This document shows, piece by piece, positions 1 through 43,961 of a stretch of 64,000 nucleotides of DNA. The DNA comes from Naegleria gruberi (Eukaryota): assembly GCA_000004985.1 (NCBI GenBank), contig GG738881.1. One strand, given 5' to 3'. The translations under genes and the position numbers were made by a program. The notes under the pieces were generated by a model. That model was not told the DNA's origin and made no database searches. It saw only the letters and a list, made by a program, of their open reading frames with translations. Each line of letters begins with the position of its first letter. The stretch's first letter is position 1.

Positions 1-449
1 TTTATCAATTAATAGAAAATTAATACCCTAGCTGCCAATAAACTAAAATTAAATTCTATCAAGATCGGAATATCAACACTTTCCTTTAATTTACTTTAAT
101 CAACATGGTTAAATGTAGATTGTGTATTCAAAGCTAATCTTGAGCTCACAATTCTTCTGAATGAACATCAACTAAATGTTTAGTTATCTTCATTGCACTG
201 TATTGGAGTTAGACAAGTGTTGTTCTAAAGATTTGACATTTGTCATGGAAATTAACACTTGCTAGGTATGTGTTTAATCCTCTTCAAAGAAGTCTAATAC
301 TATACTATTGTTTTTGAAAAAGTAAAAGCAAATATTTGAAGACTCAAATCCGTAAATTGATCTTTTATTGATCAACCACAAGTATCTCTTTCTAAATGAT
401 AAAATTCAAAGGTGATATATAGATGGTCACGTAGCAAGCTTTTCTAAAT

Positions 450-554
450 AACAAACTTACTGAACCAACAATCAATAGATTCGTTGCCTTCACTGTTCAT
501 ACAGTCAAAGACTGTAGCGGGATAGTCGCCATATTCCTGGCAGGCTTCCCGTCT
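450..554 (+). repeat. Conserved ~105-nt element 'X', copy A. Near-identical to complement of 43428-43532. Weaker homology continues to ~318. Candidate structured ncRNA or retroelement terminus.
   Basis: Direct comparison of the printed sequence. 450-554 is the reverse complement of 43428-43532 with ~1 mismatch. Flanks 318-450 vs 43532-43680 are ~80% identical. It contains a 7-bp hairpin (TACAGTC ttt GACTGTA). Confidence 0.6.
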
Positions 555-2100
555 AATTTAACAATTGAAATTTAAATAATACAATAATATGTTCCTCACA
601 GTAGTAAGGGCAGTAAATTGATTATCAATCAAAAAAAATGAAATATTTAATATGGCCGTATATTAGTTCACAATATTCTCATTTAACACTCATATTGATT
701 TTGTAAAAATGTAGTTACTTGGAACGATGATTCAAAATGGAAAAGTTCCAATATTGCTTTTCAAAGATTGAGAAGATTGATATTTGAGCAAAATGTTAGA
801 ATTGAATACTTTAAGTTTTATTTACAATGATCGCCTAGGTTTACAAAATTGTGAGTTGTGGAGATTACCACATTTTGAATTGTTTGTTTCTCATTTCTAA
901 AGTATTATGTGATTGAGATTTAGAAGTTTTACTTGTTTCATTTCCGAAATTTCCTTGGATAACATTATTGGTGAAGTGTTATTGGAGGAATTATACATAT
1001 TTCTTCTTGTTGAGACCATTTTCTTATTATTATTTTGTTATTTTCTTTTGTAGATTTTCATTAAATTTCCTTCATCAAAATATTAATAGAAAAATTCAAA
1101 CTTCTTGTTAAAAATCGGAATCACAAAATTAGTGGAAATCATCTTGGAAGTAAATAGATAACTGATCGGATGATGATATTTCCACAACAAAACAAAATAA
1201 CTAAATAACAAACACTAAGAGCAAAATGCCAGCTAGAAATACTTCATCACATTCTTCCAAAGATAAAATTCCAACAAAAACAGAATGGACAAGATCTAAA
1301 CCAATTGATTTATCTAAAAGATTACCATTATTTGATATTGATACTTCAAATATTATAAGTGGAACTAGACATCGTAATAATATTGATTATCATCATGCAA
1401 ATTTAAATGGTAAACAAATTTCAGTGAAAAGATCTTCGAAAAATTCAATTGAAAAGAGAACTAAATGTAAATATCCTAAATTTGTAAATAAAAAAAGAAG
1501 AGAATTAAATACCCAGAAGAATCAGATCTTATTATTGTTCATAACTGAAGTTGCCCTACTGTGTTTGAGGCAGTAGTTCATTTAGTAAATTACTTTGATT
1601 TATGAGAAGAGTTTAATATTGTGTGAATTGTACAACAGAGATTTATTTAAAACTGAAATGATTCAATCTGCTATCATATAATTGTGGTTTTGTTCTTGAT
1701 ATTAGGAGTGCTGTGGATTTGATGAATTCTGCAAATACTAAGTGAGAGAAATAATTGTCAGCCCTCTTGAACTCTATTCTCAACTATTAATTGATTAGGA
1801 AAAGTACAAGAGGGCTCAATGAATCTATAATCATAATAGCTATAGTATTCATTGCAGTAGGTTTCTTTTTTTTTTAATTGAACAAGAGACAATTTCACTC
1901 ATTCAACCCACTTGCTATCTATTTATATTTTTGGAAAATGTAACTTTCATATTTTGAAGCTCACATCCATGCATTTACTTGTCATAAGCAATGCTCAATT
2001 TCATTGTTGTACAGGACATGTGTTTCTGTTGAACAAATATTTCAGGATTCAAATTAATGACTACCGGTACAATTATATTTCACAATTTGAGGAAGTGTAT

Positions 2101-2220
2101 GGCTACGGCCATATCACGATGAATGCACCTCATCCCGTCCGATTTGAGAAGTTAAGCATCGTCGAGCCACATCAGTACTGAGGTTGGAGACAACTTGGGA
2201 ACCTGTGGTGCTGTAGTCTT
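2101..2220 (+). rRNA. 5S ribosomal RNA gene, copy 1, ending in a T-run (pol III terminator).
   Basis: The sequence GGCTACGGCCATATCACGATGAATGCACCTCATCCCGTCCGATTTGAGAAGTTAAGCATCGTCGAGCCACATCAGTACTGAGGTTGGAGACAACTTGGGAACCTGTGGTGCTGTAGTC plus TTTTT matches the eukaryotic 5S consensus blocks (CGGCCATA, CCCGTCCGAT, GTTAAGC, GTACT, GGGAGAC, TGCTGTAG). Helix I pairs GGCTAC with GTAGTC. Confidence 0.9.
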
Positions 2221-2460
2221 TTTGATTGCAATAGGAAAATCTATCCTAATATATGGTTATTCATGGATTAAAAGCATCTTTTGTAATGCAATGTTTGAGA
2301 GTGGTGCATCTTTCTGTGATATTAAGGACGATGTACCCTCTAGACAAAATTATTCGAACCATCACATTCACTTGTTCAATTAGATAATTGCTAAATACTT
2401 TATTTTACATTTCGATATGTACCTTGTAAAGTGCAGGGAAGTTTTGATGAGGAATTTGAG

Positions 2461-2733
2461 TCATCCTCCTAAAACAATCATTTCTCCAAGTGCCTTTTGA
2501 AATTTCTCAACAGATTCCCAATGAGCATAATTAATATATTGATATTGAGATTTTTCCATATCGAGTGCCTTATGAAGTGAAGTATGAATGAAACCATCTT
2601 GTTTTTTAAAGAATTCTGCGCAAACAGTCCAACCCAATTCAAATTCCTTCTCATCTTTCACATCAATGTGAAATGGATTCATGAGAACAACGTAATTGGT
2701 TTTCATTGATTTAACAGGACAAGTATTGGACAT
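2461..2733 (-). CDS. Small protein (90 aa) resembling the antibiotic-biosynthesis-monooxygenase (ABM) / stress-responsive dimeric alpha+beta barrel fold.
   Basis: ORF track. The size (~90-100 aa) and the hydrophobic/aromatic pattern (NPFHIDVKDEKEFELGW ... YINYAHWES) are typical of ABM-domain proteins. The match is by pattern only. Confidence 0.35.
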   Translation of the reverse strand: MSNTCPVKSMKTNYVVLMNPFHIDVKDEKEFELGWTVCAEFFKKQDGFIHTSLHKALDMEKSQYQYINYAHWESVEKFQKALGEMIVLGG

Positions 2734-3258
2734 GTTTTGATGGAGGTATTAATGATTTTGTTTTTTTTTGATTTGATTTTGTGACTTTTCCTTATTGGGA
2801 GTGTTTCTTAAAAAATCCGCTAACAAAATTGCTCAACTCCTCAGTAGAGGACAATTGAATACTTGGATTTGAGGACAATTTTTCTAGTTTGAACTTAAAT
2901 GAGCTCACATTATAATGAGAAGAAACAAATGGGGTCGAAGCTGTGTCTCTTTCTAGATGGATATTGTGTTTGGAACTGATGATTAAGTAAATTTTGTAGG
3001 AATTACAGTCTGTTATTAGTGATAAAGATCTATAAATTCGAAGAGCAAAGATAATAAAGTAACGAGTGGGTGACAGGCAATTGAGTCCATCCTGACCTTG
3101 GAAAAAAATTAGGTCAAAACTGTGGGCATTATCTCGATCATTAGTATATTTAAAGAAGATATTTTTGAGATAATTGTAGCCCTACATGTCTAGTTTATGG
3201 GGTAAAAAATTGGAAGTTGTACTCTTTGTAGATAAGGCAAAAATTGACAATCTTGAGA

Positions 3259-3329
3259 TGCGTCGACCGGGAATTGAACCCGGGTCACGGCGATGGCAAC
3301 GCCGTATTCTACCACTAAACCATCGACGC
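3259..3329 (-). tRNA. tRNA-Gly (anticodon GCC).
   Basis: The reverse complement is GCGTCGATGGTTTAGTGGTAGAATACGGCGTTGCCATCGCCGTGACCCGGGTTCAATTCCCGGTCGACGCA. It folds as a cloverleaf with a 7-bp acceptor stem, anticodon stem CGGCG/CGCCG, loop TTGCCAT, T-arm CCGGG TTCAATT CCCGG and discriminator A. Confidence 0.9.
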
Positions 3330-3435
3330 TTCTTGTTCAAATGACTTGTTACCTATTTGTAAAATTAAATATGAATGCTTATGTTAAAGCAAACGATTTT
3401 AGGAATTGTACGCGTCCTTTTGAAAGTTAAAAAAA

Positions 3436-5235
3436 ATGATCAAGAAACCAGAACTCTTTTCCGACGATATTTGTTTTGAAATTCTTTCCCATTTGGCAAA
3501 TGATTGGAAATTTATTTTCACAACTTGTTCATTAATTTCTCAACAATGGCTAAATGTTATTAAACACAATTCATCATTGTTGAATCTTTCCATTTATTTT
3601 AATCAAAAACTAAATGATGAACAGAAAAATCAAATGTCAAAATGTGAATTATTAACATGTTTATCCAATGTGAAAGTTTATTCAAAGATTGCGAAATGGT
3701 TTTGTACAAATATTGGAATATTCATGAAAGGAATGATTAGATTAGAAATTAGCTATTGTCGTTTGGAAGCAGAAGATGTCAATTTTATTGGTGAAATGAA
3801 GCAATTAACTGAACTTGATATTAGTTTAAATAATATTAATTGTAAAGGAGCTATTACTATCAGTCAATTGAGTAAATTAACTAAACTCAATGTTTATCAA
3901 ACCAAAATGGGTGTTGAAGGTGCTAAAGAACTAAGTAAATTGAAAGAACTAACATCCCTCGAAATAGGAGACAATCATTTAAAATCTGAAGGAGCAGCTC
4001 ACATTGCCCAAATGAGAAAATTAACATTCCTTGATATTAATACCAATATGATTGGAAATGAAGGTATTGAGCTGATAAGTAGAATGGAACAATTAACTGA
4101 TTTAGATGTTATGGATAATAATATTCGATCAGAAGGTGTTAAATCACTCTGTAAAATGAAACATCTTACTAATCTAAATATTGGAAACAATCCAATTGAA
4201 GATGAAGGGGCTATATTATTAGGTGAAATGAAACAATTGAAAAATCTCATTACAGCTTGCAACAATATTGGGATGAAAGGATTTAGCTCACTTAGCACAT
4301 TACTCAATTTGGAATCACTTGTTATACTTGGATTAGATGGTAAATCTACTGATTTCATTCGTGAAATGAATCAATTAACTCGTCTTGAATTTTATGGTTC
4401 TAACCTTGAGCCAAAAGGTTTCGATCCAATTAGTCACCTGTCCAATTTAACATTTCTAACTATAAGGGGTCGAAATATTGCTGATGGTGACTTGGAATGT
4501 ATTGGTCAATTTAAAAAGCTGACCACACTTAATGTACCATCATGCAATATTAATCAAGGATTTAAATCAATTTGTGGGTTGAAGAATTTAACATTCCTTG
4601 ACTTGAGCTATAACAAAATTGAAAGTGTTGAATCAATTACTAATTTGAAGAGTTTGACACAACTTGACATCAATGGGAATCGAATTGGACATGAAGGAGC
4701 AAAATCTATCAGTCAATTAGACAATTTAACTAATCTCCAAATCGGTCATAATTTAATACAAGATGAGGGAATCAAGTATTTAAGTACTATGCAGTGTTTA
4801 ACTACTCTGGGTGTGGCTGAAAATCAAATAAGCATTGAGGGTGCCAAGTTCATAAGCAAATCTCATCAATTGACTTCACTTGATCTCACAAACAACGTTA
4901 TCGAAACTGAAGGAGCCAAAATTTTGAGTGAGCTCAATAATTTGACAGGGTTATTTGTTTATGGAAACAGAATTAGAGATGAAGGAGCCAAATATATCAG
5001 TACTATGCAACAATTAACAATTCTTGATATTGCCTATAATGAAATAACAGATGAAGGAGCAAAAGCAATAAGTAATCTCGATCAACTATCGACACTTTAT
5101 ATTTATTCAAATGAAATTTGTGATGAAGGAGCAAAATCCATTTGTGGAATGAAACAATTGACCATTCTTGATATTGACTATAATGTACTTAGTGAAGAAG
5201 TATCCAATCAATTAAGAATGGAATACCACAACTAA
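3436..5235 (+). CDS. F-box-like N-terminus plus ribonuclease-inhibitor-type leucine-rich repeat protein (~20 RNI-like LRRs).
   Basis: ORF track, 599 aa. The N-terminus FSDDICFEILSHLAN is F-box-like. The motif L..LT.LDI..N.IG.EGAK.IS is repeated throughout. Confidence 0.7.
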   Translation: MIKKPELFSDDICFEILSHLANDWKFIFTTCSLISQQWLNVIKHNSSLLNLSIYFNQKLNDEQKNQMSKCELLTCLSNVKVYSKIAKWFCTNIGIFMKGMIRLEISYCRLEAEDVNFIGEMKQLTELDISLNNINCKGAITISQLSKLTKLNVYQTKMGVEGAKELSKLKELTSLEIGDNHLKSEGAAHIAQMRKLTFLDINTNMIGNEGIELISRMEQLTDLDVMDNNIRSEGVKSLCKMKHLTNLNIGNNPIEDEGAILLGEMKQLKNLITACNNIGMKGFSSLSTLLNLESLVILGLDGKSTDFIREMNQLTRLEFYGSNLEPKGFDPISHLSNLTFLTIRGRNIADGDLECIGQFKKLTTLNVPSCNINQGFKSICGLKNLTFLDLSYNKIESVESITNLKSLTQLDINGNRIGHEGAKSISQLDNLTNLQIGHNLIQDEGIKYLSTMQCLTTLGVAENQISIEGAKFISKSHQLTSLDLTNNVIETEGAKILSELNNLTGLFVYGNRIRDEGAKYISTMQQLTILDIAYNEITDEGAKAISNLDQLSTLYIYSNEICDEGAKSICGMKQLTILDIDYNVLSEEVSNQLRMEYHN

Positions 5236-13342: not shown

Positions 13343-14329
13343 TTAGAAAAGACCACCGAAGCCCATTTCTTCTTCTTCCTCTTCTTCTTCCTTCTTGTCT
13401 TCAACAACAGCAGCAGTGGTGTTAGCAGTAGCAACTGGAGCAGAGGAAGCGAACTTGCTTGGATCAGCAAGGTATTCCTTAACCTTTTCAGCTTGTGGGA
13501 ATGAGAATTCAGTACCAGCAGCAATAGCCAACAAGTTCTTGAAGGTGTTAGCAACAGAGTGAGGAATAGAAGCTTCATTAGGCATATCCAAAGCCAAACC
13601 GAGAGCAGCAACATTGTTGACAGCATCTCTGACCTTTGATTCCATAACTTCGTCAGTCAAAGAAAGGACAGTTGGTGAGTAAACAGCACCGTTGTCATAA
13701 ATGTTAACCAAAACCAAACCATATTCGAAAGGCTTAATGTTCAACAATTGCAACAAAGCAGCTTCTGAGGAACCGACCTTATCACCTGGGTTCAAGAGAA
13801 TGTGTTCCTTGATAATTTCGACGGTACCCTTGGTAATCTTGGTGTTAATGTTAAGGGCTTGGAAGAAAGAAGTCTTGGTTGGTTCAAGACCAGTGTTAGC
13901 TGGTTGAATGACGACCTTGACTGGGGAGATGGCACCTTGCTTAGCTGGAGCACCAACCTTGTATGAGAGAATAACGTCCTTGACTTCGTTCAAATCATTG
14001 TTAGTGAAGACCAAACCAACGTTACCCTTGAGGAGATCAGCAATCTTGGCAATGTTAGCAGCTTGAGCAGCCAATGACTTGTACTTTTCTGGAGCAGAAG
14101 TCAAAACCTTGATAGCCTTCTTCATCAAAGTGTTCTTACCCATGAGCAATTCACCCTTTCCTCTCAAACCGACTCTGATGTCAGCCATTTGCTTGGATCT
14201 AACGTTGTTAGCTTCAACGAAGATAATCTTGGTGTACTTGTCCAACATGTTAATGAAGGATTCAACGTATTGTTCCTTCAACTTTTGCTTTTCGTCCTTT
14301 GACAATTGTCTCTTTGCTCTTTTGACCAT
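13343..14329 (-). CDS. rplp0: 60S acidic ribosomal protein P0 (uL10).
   Basis: Strong full-length similarity to eukaryotic P0, including the block ANNVRSKQMADIRVGLRGKGELLMGKNT and the C-terminal EEEEEEEMGFGGLF tail. The true start is the internal Met MVKRAKRQ, because the ORF-track start at 14392 adds 21 non-homologous residues. Confidence 0.95.
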   Translation of the reverse strand: MVKRAKRQLSKDEKQKLKEQYVESFINMLDKYTKIIFVEANNVRSKQMADIRVGLRGKGELLMGKNTLMKKAIKVLTSAPEKYKSLAAQAANIAKIADLLKGNVGLVFTNNDLNEVKDVILSYKVGAPAKQGAISPVKVVIQPANTGLEPTKTSFFQALNINTKITKGTVEIIKEHILLNPGDKVGSSEAALLQLLNIKPFEYGLVLVNIYDNGAVYSPTVLSLTDEVMESKVRDAVNNVAALGLALDMPNEASIPHSVANTFKNLLAIAAGTEFSFPQAEKVKEYLADPSKFASSAPVATANTTAAVVEDKKEEEEEEEEMGFGGLF

Positions 14330-14922
14330 TTTTGTGGGTAGACCTCTAGTTTGTTTTTTTTCAACAGAAAAATTTAAAACTTGTGCGGACAACTGGCTAA
14401 AAAATATTTTACAATCAAATTTTAATGAAAAAACTTGTTGAAGCAGCCGCCTTCATTTTCTGATTTGATGTTTGCACAAGTTATGTAATTAAGATAAACC
14501 ATTTACATTATTCCAAGTATTGTTACCTCATTCTCTGAATTGTAGATGAAAACCACATGGTTAAACATTGAATGAAAGAATTCAAAAACGATTCAAAAGA
14601 CTACTCTTCCAATCTTAATGAATAGATCTGTCTGATGCTGTACTTATGAGATTGGGTTCCATTCAAACACTACGTGGTAATGAAATTCTGGAAGATTAAT
14701 GAACGATTTGAATTGGATTTGAAATCAATGGTTGAAATCAATTTTCTAAATTACTATCATGATTTAATTAACAACAAAATCACATTTAATAATGTAAAAA
14801 ACAATAATTAACAGTGGTAACATTCGGAATTAATTTTTTGTTTTTATAAGAGTGAGAAGTTGTGTCATTTCGTCGGGTTAAATTATATAAATTGATGTTG
14901 GTGATGATGGAGAAAATCTTCT

Positions 14923-18568: not shown

Positions 18569-20272
18569 TTATATTATAGATTTAGCACTATTGATAAGTG
18601 TACTACCAACATTTCCAATAACTGAACTAACCATTGAGAATGGATTCAAAGTTTCATTTTGATTTCTTCTAATCTTTGATCTCAATAAATTGTAAAGAGA
18701 ATCAAACTCAAGTTTGCTTTGAATAATTGGTAATTCAAATGTTAATCCATGACTAGTTAAAATTGAAAGTGTTCCTAAAATTGGAGATTCTTGATTGTCT
18801 ACATTTTGTAATTTTTTCACAGATTTGATTGAGGTAAATGGAATGACAGTATCTTTCTTTTGAGGTTTCATCCATTCGAAACAAAAATATTGTTCTCCAA
18901 TAAAGGCAATACCAGTTGGTTCTTGTGAATTCGTGGAAAGAAGGAAATAGGTAATTAACTTTTCTCTTGAACAAATCTTATCAATTTGGAATCTTTGGAA
19001 GAAGTATGTTTGAGCTTCTTCTTGTGTCAACATATTTGAAATATTATCATTCTTTGGTTCTTGACGTTTGAGAGAGGCCTTTGAGTGTTTGTATTGATCA
19101 AGGAATGTTTCACAATTTTCCTTTTCAATATCACAAACTTCAATCTCTCCGTAATCTTTAATGGAGATTTTCAAAGTGTTGGAAGTTTGCACAATGTTCT
19201 CAATTCTATTCCATGTGAATTTTTCATAGAAGGTTGCTTGAACAGCATAGAAACAGAAACTACTTGTAAATACAAATATGGAAGATTTGAAAGAGTTTTC
19301 ATCTTGTCTAACATTGGATGAGAAGAATGTAATGCATTGTTCCTCTAATGGAATATCAAACTTTCTCTTGATGATATCTTCTCTATTTTCCTCATCTTCT
19401 GGACCTTTACTAGCTAATGAATCAGAAGATTCAGATGCAGCTGATATGAATCCCTTTGTTTGTTCAGATGATGGTTTTGATCCAAATTTAAACAAGTTCA
19501 TCAATTTGCTTGGTGTATTGGTGCTTTGTGTTGGGGTGGCCTTGTTCTTTGATATTTCCACATTATTTCCAAGATTTTTGAATTGAGTTTGTAAACATTC
19601 AATGAAAGCACTTCTTGAAGATTCATCAGAAAAGAAAAACTTGACTCTATTCTTTGGATTGTTACTTGAGGAGCCAACATAGATAGAAGTGTTGGCAGAT
19701 ATTTTGAAATGAATAGAAACTCCCTTTCTCATAAAACCTTCTGTTAAATGAATCTTTTCAACATCGCGTAATGAAATTCTGTGATAAACATTTGAGAATC
19801 TAAATTCAAATAATAAAAATTCACCACCAATGTGAATAGTTCCTGGAGCAATCTTTGAAGAATCATAACAGGTCGACGTTAAATAGACAGTTAATTTGTC
19901 TGTTCCTTCAACAATGGAATATCTAGCATAAATATTGAATTTGATAATTAATCTTTGAACCTTTGCAGTTTCCTTATATTTAGAATAAATTTTTCTAGCT
20001 TTTTCATCATTCTTCTTTCTAGTAAAAAGTATGGAAACTATGTGATAGGCCTTAACAGGATATTTCTCTGCAAATTTAGTATTTGAAGCAAGTTTTTGTA
20101 AGTGAGCTTCCAGCTTTTCTGTTTGGGTATTGTAAAGTTTACAAAGCTTGACTAAAAGTTTACTCTTAGTTCTGGCAAAATCATGTGAAAGAGCAGTTTC
20201 TTCCTCTTCGTCATCTGTCTTCTCAGCAGATCCACAAAAGTAAATAATAAATAACTCTAAAATAGATTCCAA
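18569..20272 (-). CDS. Hypothetical protein with GRAM/PH-like segments.
   Basis: ORF track. GRAM-like patterns (GIAFIGEQYFCFEW...IPFTSIKSVKKL, IHIGGEFLLFEFRFS). The assignment is weak. Confidence 0.3.
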   Translation of the reverse strand: MESILELFIIYFCGSAEKTDDEEEETALSHDFARTKSKLLVKLCKLYNTQTEKLEAHLQKLASNTKFAEKYPVKAYHIVSILFTRKKNDEKARKIYSKYKETAKVQRLIIKFNIYARYSIVEGTDKLTVYLTSTCYDSSKIAPGTIHIGGEFLLFEFRFSNVYHRISLRDVEKIHLTEGFMRKGVSIHFKISANTSIYVGSSSNNPKNRVKFFFSDESSRSAFIECLQTQFKNLGNNVEISKNKATPTQSTNTPSKLMNLFKFGSKPSSEQTKGFISAASESSDSLASKGPEDEENREDIIKRKFDIPLEEQCITFFSSNVRQDENSFKSSIFVFTSSFCFYAVQATFYEKFTWNRIENIVQTSNTLKISIKDYGEIEVCDIEKENCETFLDQYKHSKASLKRQEPKNDNISNMLTQEEAQTYFFQRFQIDKICSREKLITYFLLSTNSQEPTGIAFIGEQYFCFEWMKPQKKDTVIPFTSIKSVKKLQNVDNQESPILGTLSILTSHGLTFELPIIQSKLEFDSLYNLLRSKIRRNQNETLNPFSMVSSVIGNVGSTLINSAKSII

Positions 20273-20301
20273 TACATATGCCTTTTTTTAAATATTAGTT
20301 T

Positions 20302-23300
20302 TTAACTAAATTGTGAGATGATACTTACTTGTTGGGCAGTCAAAAAAACTCTATCTTGAGGTTTCCTAGTAAAATTAGCAGGATCCAACAGGAAAGTACT
20401 CAATTCCTCTACTACTATCAAGAATAATCTTTCCAAAATCTTCTTGAATAAATCCTTATAACAATTTTGACTCAAAATTTCCAAAGCAGGTGTTAAAATT
20501 GGGATGAAGAGTGATGAATCTAGAAGTGCATCAGATTTGCTCTGGAAGAGATTTTTAACTTCAACTCTTGTAGAATTCTTCATCTTGGCAAGATCTTTTT
20601 TAGCATTTTGTAAAACGTAATTAATAGCATTTCTTATTGGAGCTTGGAAAATGTTAGCAGTTGCTAATGTCAAATCGAACAAAACTTCATTGAATTGTTT
20701 TGTGAATTTTTGAATTGACATGTTAGACTTTTTGGAATATTCATTTTCAATCTGTTTAGATTTTTGATTCGATTTCTTTTCAACTTCATCAAAATCAATA
20801 TCATCTCTATCATAATCTTCAAATCCAGTTTCTTCCGTAGTTTCTTCATATTCAGCCCATGAAGAAGTATCAAATATATTCTTTACAACAGATTGAAGCT
20901 CTTGTCTACATGCTTCAATGTCATTCAATCTAATCACAAAATGTTTGGTGATTGCAACAGGTAAAATATGAGTATCCTTCAAATCTTTAAATACAGACTT
21001 TGGAACAATCATATTAAAGAGAAGGTTACTTTGTTTTTGTTTTGAATCAACATTTTGGTTGGAGAGACTGTTGACATCCTCCAAACATTGATCTGAGACT
21101 TTCTTTGCATATTCTGTTGCGGTAATTCTAATAACAAGCTCTGCAAATCTTACATACAAATTGGAATCAGAAAATTCCAATTTTTGTAACAATTCAAATA
21201 TTTGATTTACAGAGGTAAAATAATCTACCACTGAGGTACTATGCATACAACTATCATTGATAGGTTCAAAAGTATCAATTGCAATACTTTGTTTGATCCA
21301 TTTGGATAACATTTCACTTAATTCTGTCATATATCTTTCAGAATAACCCTCACTAATAGATTTAGCATCAATAAATTTGAAATTAGAAAGTTCCTTAGAT
21401 GAAAAATCGTGTCTAATTTCCTCATGGAGAGGTTTCAACTTGTTACAAAGAGTGAGCATATAAAATCCATTAATGTTATCATTCTTCTTAGCGTATTGGA
21501 TATAGTTGTCCAAATTAGAGTAATAAAACGTCAGTGCCTCCATTTCAAAATTGTCGATAGAGAAAATTCCTGAAAAATAGAAAATCTCATCAATAACTTT
21601 CACTAATTCTGAGCACAGCTCTACAAGAATAGGTCCGTTCATATCTTTAAATCCAAGACTATTTTGAATCTCCTCAATAATTCCATCTAGATGTGTTTGA
21701 AAAGCTCCATTAATAATCTTCTTCAATCTCTTACTGTACTCCTTTTCAACAATTCTGTTATTATATTTACAACACAAGAGTTTGTGTACAAAAACGAAGG
21801 ATTTTAGGGCTCCTTGTGGTTCGTTCTTAGGAAACATGGTAATATATTGTTTCATAGCTTTCTCAATCTTTTTCAAAAGTGTTTCTGTCAAGTCAAAATA
21901 TCTGTTTCTTTCAGTTTGTGTCATTGGGAAATATTTGCTTTGTAAATTGTTATCAAGCAATTCCAAACACTTTTGTAAATCATCAGAAAATGTGATTGCC
22001 AACTTAATATTGGATGCAAACACTTCCAAATATAACAATCTCTTATATGTCTCTGTGATACCATATCTCTTCTCAAAATCATTTAAAATCCAACCTTGAC
22101 TAGGACACATAAAATCTTCACAGTCAGAATCTTGTAACTTCTCTCGATTTTTAACTAAAGATTTCAATGTAAATTTGTACAATTTAATCCAATCAATTCT
22201 ACTCTCCTTAGAAAAATCAGTAATTACATCGACCTTACATGGATATCTTCTAAAAGTAGCTTTCATGCATACTGAAATACATCCTATAACTTCATTTTCA
22301 TTCTTAGAATCACGAGGATGTGGATGTAAATCAATAGTTTCAGAAATTTGGGCACTTCCCCAAACACCACTTGAGGTATAAGCTTGTGTCATTATAGAGG
22401 AAATTCGTAGCTTTGTAGTACCAAAATGAATCTTCTTCAATCCTCCAAGCTGGAAATAATAAAATTCTATAGACATATCTTGATCCTCGCATGATGTCGA
22501 AATGGTATGAGAAAGAGTCTCTGGAATTTCAATATCGATTGCATTCTTAATGTTCATAGCAAATTTACTACAATCAATTTTTTCAGATTCTATAATGGTC
22601 TGTTGTGTACTCTTTGAATCTTTCAGATAGCATATTTTGTAACAAATTACTTGATTTGTGGTGATCTCTGTGAATATGTGTTAGTTTCCAATAAAATAAT
22701 AAGGTGAACTTACTTTTAAAAGCCTTTTGCAAATCAATAGTAACCATATTAAACTTGAAATTCAAAGTTCCCAAAAATGGAACAGCTCTCTGTTGGTCTA
22801 TAGAATTTAAAATTAAAGAAATTTGATTGAGTTCATCTTTTTTCCAAGACTGATATTCAGTTTCTTTTGAGAAAATTTTCTTATAATACATTGGGTTTAA
22901 ATCATTTTCAGCCATATATTTTCTGAATAATATTACATTCTTTACCAAATCACTTCCATTGGTATTTCTCATAATTTTACTTCGTTGAGGAAAATATTGA
23001 GTATCAACTGTTTTCCAAATCTTATCAAATTCACTATTCGAAACTGTATTAGCAAATGAAATTTTCAAAGTATTTTTCAATAATTCCAAATCTATATCAT
23101 TCGATATTTCCAACTTGTCAGTCTTACTATTTACATTAATTTGTGGAAATAAAGGCATATAAATACATTGAACGCACATTCTAAGTGCTTCCATCATTTC
23201 AAATTTTGTAAATTCTTCAAATGAATCATCTTTATCCAAATTATCCAATTGTTTCAAAAAATCTCCCAAATTGATTGTATCAATAGCAATTTCAGATTCT

Positions 23301-42424: not shown

Positions 42425-43427
42425 TTTTTTTTAATTTTTTTAATTTCGAAGGCTTTTCAAATCTTAACATAACTATTGGATTTATTAAATAATTGGATTT
42501 TAATAACAACTTGGCTTTTTCAATGGTAACTTGATTTGTTGGCCCAATCAAATTGTCGCAGAAGTATGAAATTTGTTTTCTTATTTTTGATTGTAAACTT
42601 AATTGGAAATTAAAAAGTTGAAAAAGAAACATTCAATTAAATGAATGGAAAGTTTAACTAAAAACATAGTCATATTGTATATTAATATAATTTTTTTACA
42701 AATCTCTCTAAATAATCATAATGAGCTTTTCCAATTAATTGACCAAATGAAGCAGCATTCAAAGAGTAGATGTCAATACTATTATAAATACTAGATGTAG
42801 CAATACCAGAGTATTAAGTAGAAGGTCAGAAACTTATTCAAACCGATTTGTCCAACGAAAAAGTATGTACAATGCCCGCAGTGAATGTCCAGGGTTTAGC
42901 AATTCTTAATTAATTCAATTATCCTCAATGGATTAGATATCAAGTTAATTAGCTTAGATGAAATTCATCCAGAATCAACATTATAACTCTATTGAAAACT
43001 TTAAAGAAACAGTTGTTAAGGATTGAAAAATATCTTGCCATAAAAGGCATATTTAAATACACTTTACTTTTACAGAATGTTGATGTGGTTGTAAAATACA
43101 TGATGGTCTTTAAATTCATTTTGCTTCGCTCTTTAAAATTATTTTTGTAAACAACTAGAATTATTTTGTAATACGCTATTCAATGAATACTTTTATTGAC
43201 AATGATTGAGAGAATCCATGATATTTTGTTAATTTAACAACCTCCTCTCAATCTCAATACTAAATGCACAGTTGAATCCCCTTGAAAAGATATGTCATAG
43301 CCATTTATTGCCTTAATACAATGAACAACAAAAATTTTGAACATGTTCATCAATTTAAAATCAATTTAAAAAGGAGAATAAGTTGGAGCATTTGTTGTTT
43401 GTCTTTCAATTGTTATCAAATTTGATA

Positions 43428-43532
43428 AGACGGGAAGCCTGCCAGGAATATGGCGACTATCCCGCTACAGTCTTTGACTGTATGAACAGTGAAGGCAACT
43501 AATCTATTGATTGTTGGTTCAGTAAGTTTGTT
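43428..43532 (-). repeat. Conserved ~105-nt element 'X', copy B (reverse complement of 450-554), 216 nt upstream of 5S copy 2.
   Basis: See copy A. Near-identical core with diverged flanks. Confidence 0.6.
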
Positions 43533-43748
43533 GTTCAAAATAAAAAATTGGATCACCATCTATTTATCACTTTTGAATTTGATCTATTTAGAAAGTGAAA
43601 CTTGTGGTTGATCAATACTCTAAATTAAAAAAGTGTAGAATTTCCTTTTCCAAGTTGAGTCTTCAAATGTTGTAATAGTCCAGTTTTATTTAATTCAACA
43701 GATCCAAATCGTTTTCTCATTCAATATTAAGATTTTAAGAGTATGAAT

Positions 43749-43868
43749 GGCTACGGCCATATCACGATGAATGCACCTCATCCCGTCCGATTTGAGAAGT
43801 TAAGCATCGTCGAGCCACATCAGTACTGAGGTTGGAGACAACTTGGGAACCTGTGGTGCTGTAGTCTT
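43749..43868 (+). rRNA. 5S ribosomal RNA gene, copy 2. Identical to copy 1 over the gene, with different flanks.
   Basis: Same 118-nt sequence as 2101-2218, followed by TTTTTT. Confidence 0.9.
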
Positions 43869-43961
43869 TTTTGAACCACCTTCTTGAATCCATGTATCTG
43901 TGTAATATTTTTAATACTTTAAACTCGTTTAAATATAATAATATATTTAAAGTTAGTTTAT

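Follow-up and report, generated by a model that had tools for sequence, protein, structure and literature searches.

A probable family of ~105-nt structured non-coding RNA genes in Naegleria with a tendency to adjoin 5S rRNA and tRNA genes

What is the sequence of about 105 nt that occurs twice, in opposite orientation, near the two 5S rRNA genes of a 64,000-nt stretch of the Naegleria gruberi genome (contig GG738881.1, assembly GCA_000004985.1; hereafter, the window)? An earlier note, made from the letters of the window, had described this element as a near-exact inverted pair and considered it to be either a new structured non-coding RNA (ncRNA) or a terminal fragment of a retroelement that targets RNA polymerase III (Pol III) genes. 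The evidence collected here favors, with a probability of roughly 70%, a family of ~105-nt structured ncRNA genes of Naegleria (Heterolobosea) that has its own external promoter, is an orphan with respect to Rfam, and tends to adjoin 5S rRNA and tRNA genes.

A constrained duplicated core conserved in a second species

Ungapped alignment confirmed the inverted pair: the cores of copy A and copy B were identical at 104 of 105 positions, the sole difference being C482 of copy A, which is A in copy B. In a repeat search of the window, this pair formed the longest inverted repeat (arms 442-557 and 43425-43540, 116 nt, 96%), and all other repeats were low-complexity AT or Asn-codon sequences (70-80%). 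The two copies and their conserved surroundings are as follows:

450..554, + strand: predicted RNA coding region of copy A, ~105 nt, consisting of a 16-nt single-stranded 5′ leader, stem-loop 1 (SL1; 466-486), a conserved linker (487-499), SL2 (500-516), and SL3 (517-552)
43428..43532, − strand: predicted RNA coding region of copy B
318..449, + strand: stretch upstream of copy A that shows homology to copy B (promoter region, with ATTTGAAGACTCAA at 335-348)
43533..43680, − strand: corresponding stretch upstream of copy B, carrying a 19-nt insertion relative to copy A
560..570, + strand: downstream conserved box AACAATTGAAA of copy A, a candidate 3′-end formation signal
43404..43414, − strand: downstream conserved box AACAATTGAAA of copy B

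The upstream homology (318-449 versus 43533-43680) was patchy rather than uniform. A block from about −84 to −26 was ~90% identical between the copies (TATTGATCAACCACAAGT, CTTTCTAAAT, AAATTCAAA.GTGATA.ATAGATGGT) and the distal block ATTTGAAGACTCAA was identical in both, with the stretch from −28 to −1 essentially unrelated. Downstream, the copies diverged immediately after the core, yet they retained AACAATTGAAA and, farther out, TAAATTGATT. The one-sided flank homology described earlier is therefore present on the upstream side, but the remaining flanks are not wholly unrelated, as the short downstream boxes are also common to both copies. With this slight correction, the proposal of an old duplication whose core stayed under constraint stands: core identity was 99%, versus roughly 60-90% in flanks that contain indels in the same genome.

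Homologues were reached by searching ENA metagenome assemblies at the protein level with a spurious 43-codon open reading frame (ORF) that runs antisense through the 5S gene. Eight such ORFs were retrieved and seven contigs were fetched, all of which (7/7) carried Naegleria-type 5S genes and two of which (L043 and L046) carried the element. In sample ERZ929261, the 5S gene of contig L042 was identical to that of N. gruberi and L043 contained a variant 5S copy. Sample ERZ27315067, the source of L046, represents a second species, whose 5S gene matches that of N. gruberi at 107 of 119 positions (90%). Two minus-strand copies, L046a (1362-1257) and L046b (2736-2631), flank a polyubiquitin gene on L046 and lie 0.4-1.9 kb from a 5S gene. 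The N. gruberi-like contig L043 has one rearranged copy (~1055-1136, + strand), clustered with four tRNA genes and the variant 5S gene. When the two N. gruberi copies alone were used to build a covariance model, it scored L046a at 75.5 bits from end to end, L046b at 54.5 bits, and L043, which was matched without SL1, at 52.6 bits.

Other routes to homologues gave nothing. Exact protein look-ups of window ORFs found nothing on record, and a metagenome scan for the motif AAACTTACTG-N8-ATCAAKAGA returned 39 loci, all of them chance matches. Among these, L017 240-266 and L036 277-303 share AACAAACTTACTG…ATCAATAGATT with the 5′ part of the element, a match judged to be due to chance; they belong to the 3′-flanking sequence of a small heat-shock protein gene. 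A pattern for the 3′ module (SL2 and SL3) had no match in 185,579 prokaryotic (bacterial and archaeal) genomes or in IMG/VR viral contigs. Both L043 and L046b carry TACTGACTCGAA, a similarity borderline above chance (z 3.3), and the grouping of these two copies as a distinct "type 2" subfamily thus has only borderline support.

Secondary structure, strand, and comparison with known RNA classes

Folding of the + strand of the N. gruberi element gave a free 16-nt 5′ end followed by three hairpins, with a minimum free energy (−33.8 kcal/mol, z −5.3) that was not reached by any shuffled sequence. The RNA consists of the 5′ leader, SL1, a single-stranded linker, SL2 (7 bp with an AAA loop), and SL3 (14 bp, bulged); SL2 and SL3 directly adjoin, and the apical loop region of SL3, CAUAUUCCUG, was invariant across the copies. 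In a MAFFT alignment of the 3′ modules of the five copies, 94% of cells paired, versus 27-44% when the partners were slid, and six pairs were changed on both sides. In the full-length, model-fitted alignment, 97.8% of cells paired (22-40% when slid) and 13 of 29 pairs were changed on both sides, including seven of the eight in SL1. The three hairpins are held by compensatory changes across the five copies, a finding that spans two species and backs the earlier suggestion of a new structured ncRNA.

Two wobble pairs, the G:U that closes SL3 and an internal U:G, were invariant in all five copies, and the L046 copies contained more U:G pairs. Since these G:U pairs would be C-A mismatches on the opposite strand, the RNA strand runs rightward at 450 and leftward at 43532. 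Folding z-scores agreed with this direction, which had been predicted earlier, being −5.3 versus −3.3 on the opposite strand for N. gruberi and −4.4 versus −1.8 for L046a. N. gruberi and L046a have in common AACAA at the 5′ end, the AACAA/UUGUU base of SL1, UCACUGUUCAUACA as linker, AAA in the SL2 loop, UGUAGCGGG, the SL3 loop, CAGG, and CCCGUC, and they differ in ACUUAC (GCACUGUAAAC in L046a) and in the SL1 loop AUCAAUAGA (ACUC in L046a). L046b has the same architecture with another leader and linker.

One frame is open across the whole element in all copies, so that the locus might instead encode a micropeptide. Copy B has an ATG-initiated 47-codon ORF (43559-43416, − strand) that spans the complete RNA, and the frame contains no stop in the entire element of copy A and L046a, nor in the 3′ module of L046b and L043. 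However, copy A has a stop three codons past the ATG, L046a has no ATG, and the peptide shares words with no protein among 5.8 billion. Moreover, almost all substitutions between the species are non-synonymous and come in pairs that compensate one another within RNA helices, and we consider the chance of a micropeptide gene to be vanishingly small. The copy B ORF (43416-43559, − strand) is a trap for gene callers; its start codon is missing from copy A and L046a.

An Rfam 15 search of the window at gathering thresholds detected only the two 5S genes and two tRNAs. At E ≤ 10, searches with 401-nt and 135-nt slices found nothing on the core, and a 131-nt query with the L046a orthologue was equally negative. 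The element is thus still unassigned, as it was in the earlier note, by covariance-model search in both species. The literature searched yielded no catalogue of Naegleria ncRNAs.

Several known RNA classes were considered and rejected. A small nucleolar RNA (snoRNA) of the box C/D type did not fit, as there is no C box and no Rfam snoRNA match on the core. For an H/ACA snoRNA, the ACA in AACAATTG lies at a variable distance from SL3 (8 versus 16 nt) and is absent from the L046 copies, and SL3 has no pseudouridylation pocket. The candidate telomere repeat of N. gruberi is TTTGGG (PMC3622300), and the element contains no CCCAAA template as would be expected of a telomerase RNA. Derivation of the 3′ module from 5S rRNA, with which it shares GCCAUAU and UCCCGUC, was not significant against shuffles, and RNA-RNA duplex prediction of the element with 5S rRNA was uninformative. 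A Fanzor/TnpB omega-RNA, a group II domain V, and a hammerhead, considered from the sequence, were set aside for want of an adjacent ORF, because of the wrong strand, or because of missing boxes.

Promoter architecture and likeness to small nuclear RNA genes

The following promoter-like boxes were found upstream of the cores; distances in L046a were counted from the first A of AACAACAAG at 1365:

376..381, + strand: box CCACAA of copy A, resembling an upstream sequence element (USE), within TATTGATCAACCACAAGT, −74..−69
43602..43607, − strand: USE-like box CCACAA of copy B, −75..−70
415..422, + strand: TATA-like box ATATATAG of copy A, −35..−28, in the conserved block AAATTCAAAGGTGATATATAGATGGT
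43560..43567, − strand: TATA-like box ATAAATAG of copy B, −35..−28
L046 1439-1434: CCACAA of L046a, −74..−69
L046 1400-1391: TATTTAATAA of L046a, −35..−26

Copy A and L046a thus share one layout, with CCACAA at −74..−69 and an A/T box at −35..−26, and the CCACAA of copy B lies 1 nt farther upstream. This shared geometry supports the upstream promoter that had been suggested from the flank homology, and CCACAA at −72 with a TATA-like box at −31 would constitute the first concrete candidate for a Naegleria promoter of the small nuclear RNA (snRNA) type.

Plant snRNA genes combine the USE TCCCACATCG, with the core CCCACA, and a TATA box. The Dictyostelium USE (DUSE), described as [AT]CCCA[CT]AA, lies ~60 nt upstream of its genes. 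The candidate box (A/C)CCACAA at about −72 (376-381; L046 1434-1440) closely resembles both the DUSE and the plant USE core. This similarity may be convergent; alternatively, from the comparison of motifs, it hints that a SNAPc-type element may be widely shared across distant eukaryotes. The Naegleria element resembles snRNA-type genes in having a CCACAA/CCCACAA box ~70 nt and an A/T box ~30 nt upstream (TCCCACAA in L046a), in being a small, structured, multi-copy RNA gene, and in carrying a short conserved box downstream of the 3′ end, but its RNA matches none of their products (U1-U6, U3, 7SL, MRP, and Class I RNAs). The dictyostelid Class I RNAs are similarly a lineage-restricted, multi-copy family of small RNAs with an upstream CCCA-type box. 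They are 42-65 nt long, with one short terminal 5-bp stem and the 11-nt motif CCUUACAGCAA. The element was not assigned to this class, being 105 nt long, of another architecture, devoid of CCUUACAGCAA, and hosted by Naegleria, which belongs to another supergroup.

At the 3′ end, an A-rich box (…AA.U.GAA…) follows GUCY by 5-17 nt in all five copies. No oligo-T terminator was found after any of the five, with at most T3 within 15 nt, whereas the nearby 5S and tRNA genes end in T5-T6. A Pol III type 3 gene would have oligo-T directly after the RNA, unlike any of these copies. Because of the missing terminator, we infer, but do not claim to have demonstrated, an RNA polymerase II (Pol II) gene of the snRNA type with a 3′-box-like signal.

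These features raise the question of whether the element is the long-missing, highly divergent U1 RNA of Naegleria, with a 5′ AAACUUACUG that would base-pair to GUAAGU 5′ splice sites and a first hairpin that would bind U1-70K. A 2008 survey of spliceosomal RNAs apparently did not find U1 in N. gruberi, even though a special unfiltered Infernal search was used for it, by which the RNAs of only two other species were rescued. N. gruberi possesses a U1-70K gene, the element begins with AAACUUAC-UG in this species, its SL1 loop region AUCAAUAGA resembles the kinetoplastid loop CAUCAAGAAA, and it combines an snRNA-like promoter with several gene copies. The second species, however, speaks against U1. 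Compared with the U1 5′ end (ACUUACCU), N. gruberi reads ACUUAC-UG, whereas the corresponding position of L046a is occupied by GCACUGUAAAC (5′ region AACAAGCACUGUAAAC). Compared with the U1-70K-binding loop (AUCACGAAG or CAUCAAGAAA), N. gruberi has AAUCAAUAGAUU, L046a ACUC, and L046b ACUA. Both motifs are near-invariant in real U1 RNAs. The conserved RNA has neither a four-way junction nor an Sm site: the combination of RAU3-6GR and a 3′ hairpin was seen in no copy, and an AAUUU downstream of GUCU is not positionally conserved. In addition, the Rfam U1 model (RF00003) was silent at E ≤ 10 with the 135-nt and 131-nt queries.

The complementarity of ACUUAC to the 5′ splice site, to which attention had been drawn earlier, is thus a coincidence, as it is absent from the orthologue L046a. 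Even a short U1 of the trypanosomatid type, which the element recalls in its small size and, in N. gruberi only, in ACUUAC and a first hairpin containing AUCAA, is unlike it in lacking both motifs in the second species, an Sm site, and a covariance-model match. We therefore regard identity with U1 as extremely unlikely.

Candidate introns of the window, identified by joining ORFs, include the following:

26408 (+), 28141 (−), 27923 (−), 25450 (−), 17877 (−), 7311 (−), and 44413 (−): examples of candidate introns

They begin with GUAAGU, GUAUGU, or GUGAGU, often followed by UU. The exons before them end in A, U, or G without favoring G, an unusual feature that bears on the 5′ end of the real N. 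gruberi U1. The dozen or so candidates obtained by ORF joining are too few to serve as a test of U1 pairing.

The 5S rRNA neighborhood and the nature of the family

The 5S and tRNA genes around the copies are as follows; the 5S genes are neighbors and not part of the RNA:

2101..2219, + strand: 5S rRNA gene 1 (105.4 bits)
43749..43867, + strand: 5S rRNA gene 2, identical to gene 1 and divergent from copy B
3259-3329, − strand: tRNA-Gly
L043 1-1354: ncRNA cluster with tRNAs at 1-51, 209-280 (−), 693-764 (−), and 1256-1327 (+)
L043 470-590, − strand: variant 5S gene with a 2-nt insertion

The end of copy A is 1546 nt from 5S gene 1 and the start of copy B is 216 nt from 5S gene 2, in divergent orientation; these distances, like that to tRNA-Gly, agree with those given in the earlier note. 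A copy lay within 2 kb of 5S at both 5S loci of the window (2/2) and on two of the seven independently fetched 5S contigs, which were selected via their 5S genes and many of which are too short to judge an association. Genes of this family tend to have a 5S rRNA or tRNA gene within 2 kb. On this evidence, 5S genes in Naegleria sit in small ncRNA gene neighborhoods, a situation similar to that of spliced-leader RNA and snRNA genes in related lineages.

This setting calls for comparison with the Euglenozoa, related organisms that keep spliced-leader RNA genes of ~100-140 nt beside 5S genes, a linkage documented in diplonemids, euglenids, and kinetoplastids. Like these genes, the element is of similar length (~105 nt), forms three hairpins, starts with AAC, has a variable 5′ and a constant 3′ part, and is linked to 5S in two species of a related lineage. 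Linkage to 5S and a length of ~100 nt are typical of the spliced-leader RNA family but do not define it. The element differs from it in having no Sm-binding site (SL2 and SL3 abut, and the linker is not U-rich) and no credible splice donor: none of the conserved GU contexts, CACU|GUUCAU, U|GUAGCG, and CCC|GUC, resembles the donors that the candidate introns use (GUAAGU, GUAUGU, and GUGAGU). Furthermore, conservation of the would-be leader from one species to the other is poor, and the literature searched contained no report of trans-splicing in Naegleria. It is hence highly unlikely that the element represents a spliced-leader RNA or descends from one as an evolutionary relic.

A related speculation, to our minds also very unlikely, is that the element is the heterolobosean counterpart of the euglenozoan spliced-leader RNA gene, either as an active Sm-independent donor for some mRNAs or as an ancestor of the spliced leader; a milder version envisages a modular class of snRNA with interchangeable 5′ guide domains. 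In the first case, the origin of spliced-leader trans-splicing in Discoba would move to before the split of the Euglenozoa. In the milder case, the interchangeable 5′ domains would guide a common ribonucleoprotein (RNP) to different targets.

The same neighborhood could be read as the signature of a mobile element, namely, a fragment or a non-autonomous copy (similar to a short interspersed element or a TRE) that targets Pol III genes, with the similarity of copies reflecting recent transposition or gene conversion. Copies adjoin 5S and tRNA genes at every locus, the L043 copy is truncated and rearranged within a tRNA/5S cluster, and A-rich sequence follows the element (GTGAAAAAAAAA in L043). 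However, the compensatory substitutions that keep the three hairpins across species are not expected of such a fragment, and retroposition would not copy an external promoter, whose distance is constant between N. gruberi and L046a. The sharp difference in identity between core and flanks, the lack of visible target-site duplications, and the low copy number (five in 107 kb and none in the 21-kb N. fowleri locus around the ribosomal protein P0 gene) also argue against mobility. No reverse transcriptase, integrase, or transposase was present among the tested neighbors; those with a Pfam match encode a CHZ-domain protein, an ABM-like protein (below the Pfam cut-off), a Ras protein, a 6PGL-type protein, and polyubiquitin, and two short L046 ORFs were unmatched. 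On these grounds, a mobile element is quite unlikely.

The TRE-type fragment proposed earlier does not survive these observations, and its dictyostelid frame (TRE/DIRS elements) does not apply to this DNA. The P0 gene of the window (13343-14392, − strand) encodes a protein 100% identical to that of N. gruberi, followed by N. fowleri (79%) and Willaertia (74%). Because the window is from N. gruberi (Heterolobosea, Discoba), the TRE/DIRS context was removed and the Euglenozoa were brought in as the related lineage.

We return to the structured ncRNA gene family, for which the following sequence of events is proposed. Transcription would start at AACAA, rightward at 450 and leftward at 43532, with each gene driven by an external snRNA-type promoter (CCACAA around −72, TATA-like box around −31), and the 3′ end would be formed near GUCU/GUCC, upstream of the short conserved A-rich box. 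The constant 3′ module would most likely form the core to which protein binds in a small nuclear or nucleolar RNP, and the fast-evolving 5′ leader, SL1, and linker, which differ between paralogues, would give specificity. A small nuclear or nucleolar RNP with a protein-binding 3′ module and a specificity-giving 5′ domain is the most economical mechanism; we infer from sequence features that the element is transcribed, by Pol II, and that its RNA forms an RNP with a nuclear function.

Several points weigh against this interpretation. The full-length covariation count rests on a model-fitted alignment, which leans towards structure, and the family is sampled by only five copies, which stem from two sources at the species level. 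Given the rearrangement of L043 (a 41-nt direct repeat at 944-984 and 1035-1075, no SL1, and an adjacent variant 5S gene), there may be pseudogenes among the copies. The CCACAA box is not recognizable at the right distance in L046b and L043. The 5S association outside the window is partly ascertainment-biased, the contigs having been found via 5S genes. Neither an Sm site nor a C/D box, an H/ACA box, or any other known motif for protein binding is present in the element, which makes its RNP class a guess, and its expression is predicted from the sequence.

Naegleria is a key free-living relative of the Euglenozoa and includes the pathogen N. fowleri. The family adds a conserved structured RNA with no counterpart in Rfam. 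Any heterolobosean genome can be searched with the covariance model from the N. gruberi copies, both for members of the family and to annotate the promoters of other small RNAs.

Some observations concern the neighboring genes. The two dispersed 5S genes are identical at all 119 positions and lie inside a 145-nt repeat (94% overall; 2079-2223 and 43727-43871) that takes in ~22 nt of upstream flank and the T-run region, beyond which the flanks differ. That dispersed 5S copies are identical while their flanks differ suggests concerted evolution or strong constraint. A 38-codon ORF, MNMFKIFVVHCIKAINGYDISFQGDSTVHLVLRLRGGC* (43234-43350, − strand), which lies some 80 nt downstream of copy B, resembles a truncated ubiquitin C-terminus, and the two element copies of the second species have a full polyubiquitin gene between them (L046 1752-2453). 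An element-ubiquitin neighborhood may thus be conserved between N. gruberi and the L046 species.

The coding sequence of the window is AT-rich and rich in Asn repeats, with a GC content of 16-24% at 48-60 kb. Microsynteny with N. fowleri is patchy: 18569-22557 (− strand) corresponds to 1-4229 of the N. fowleri contig L001, and 13343-14392 corresponds to L001 10001-10993. The genes between and beyond these segments differ, but the 1692-aa gene and the P0 gene hold their order and orientation in N. fowleri.

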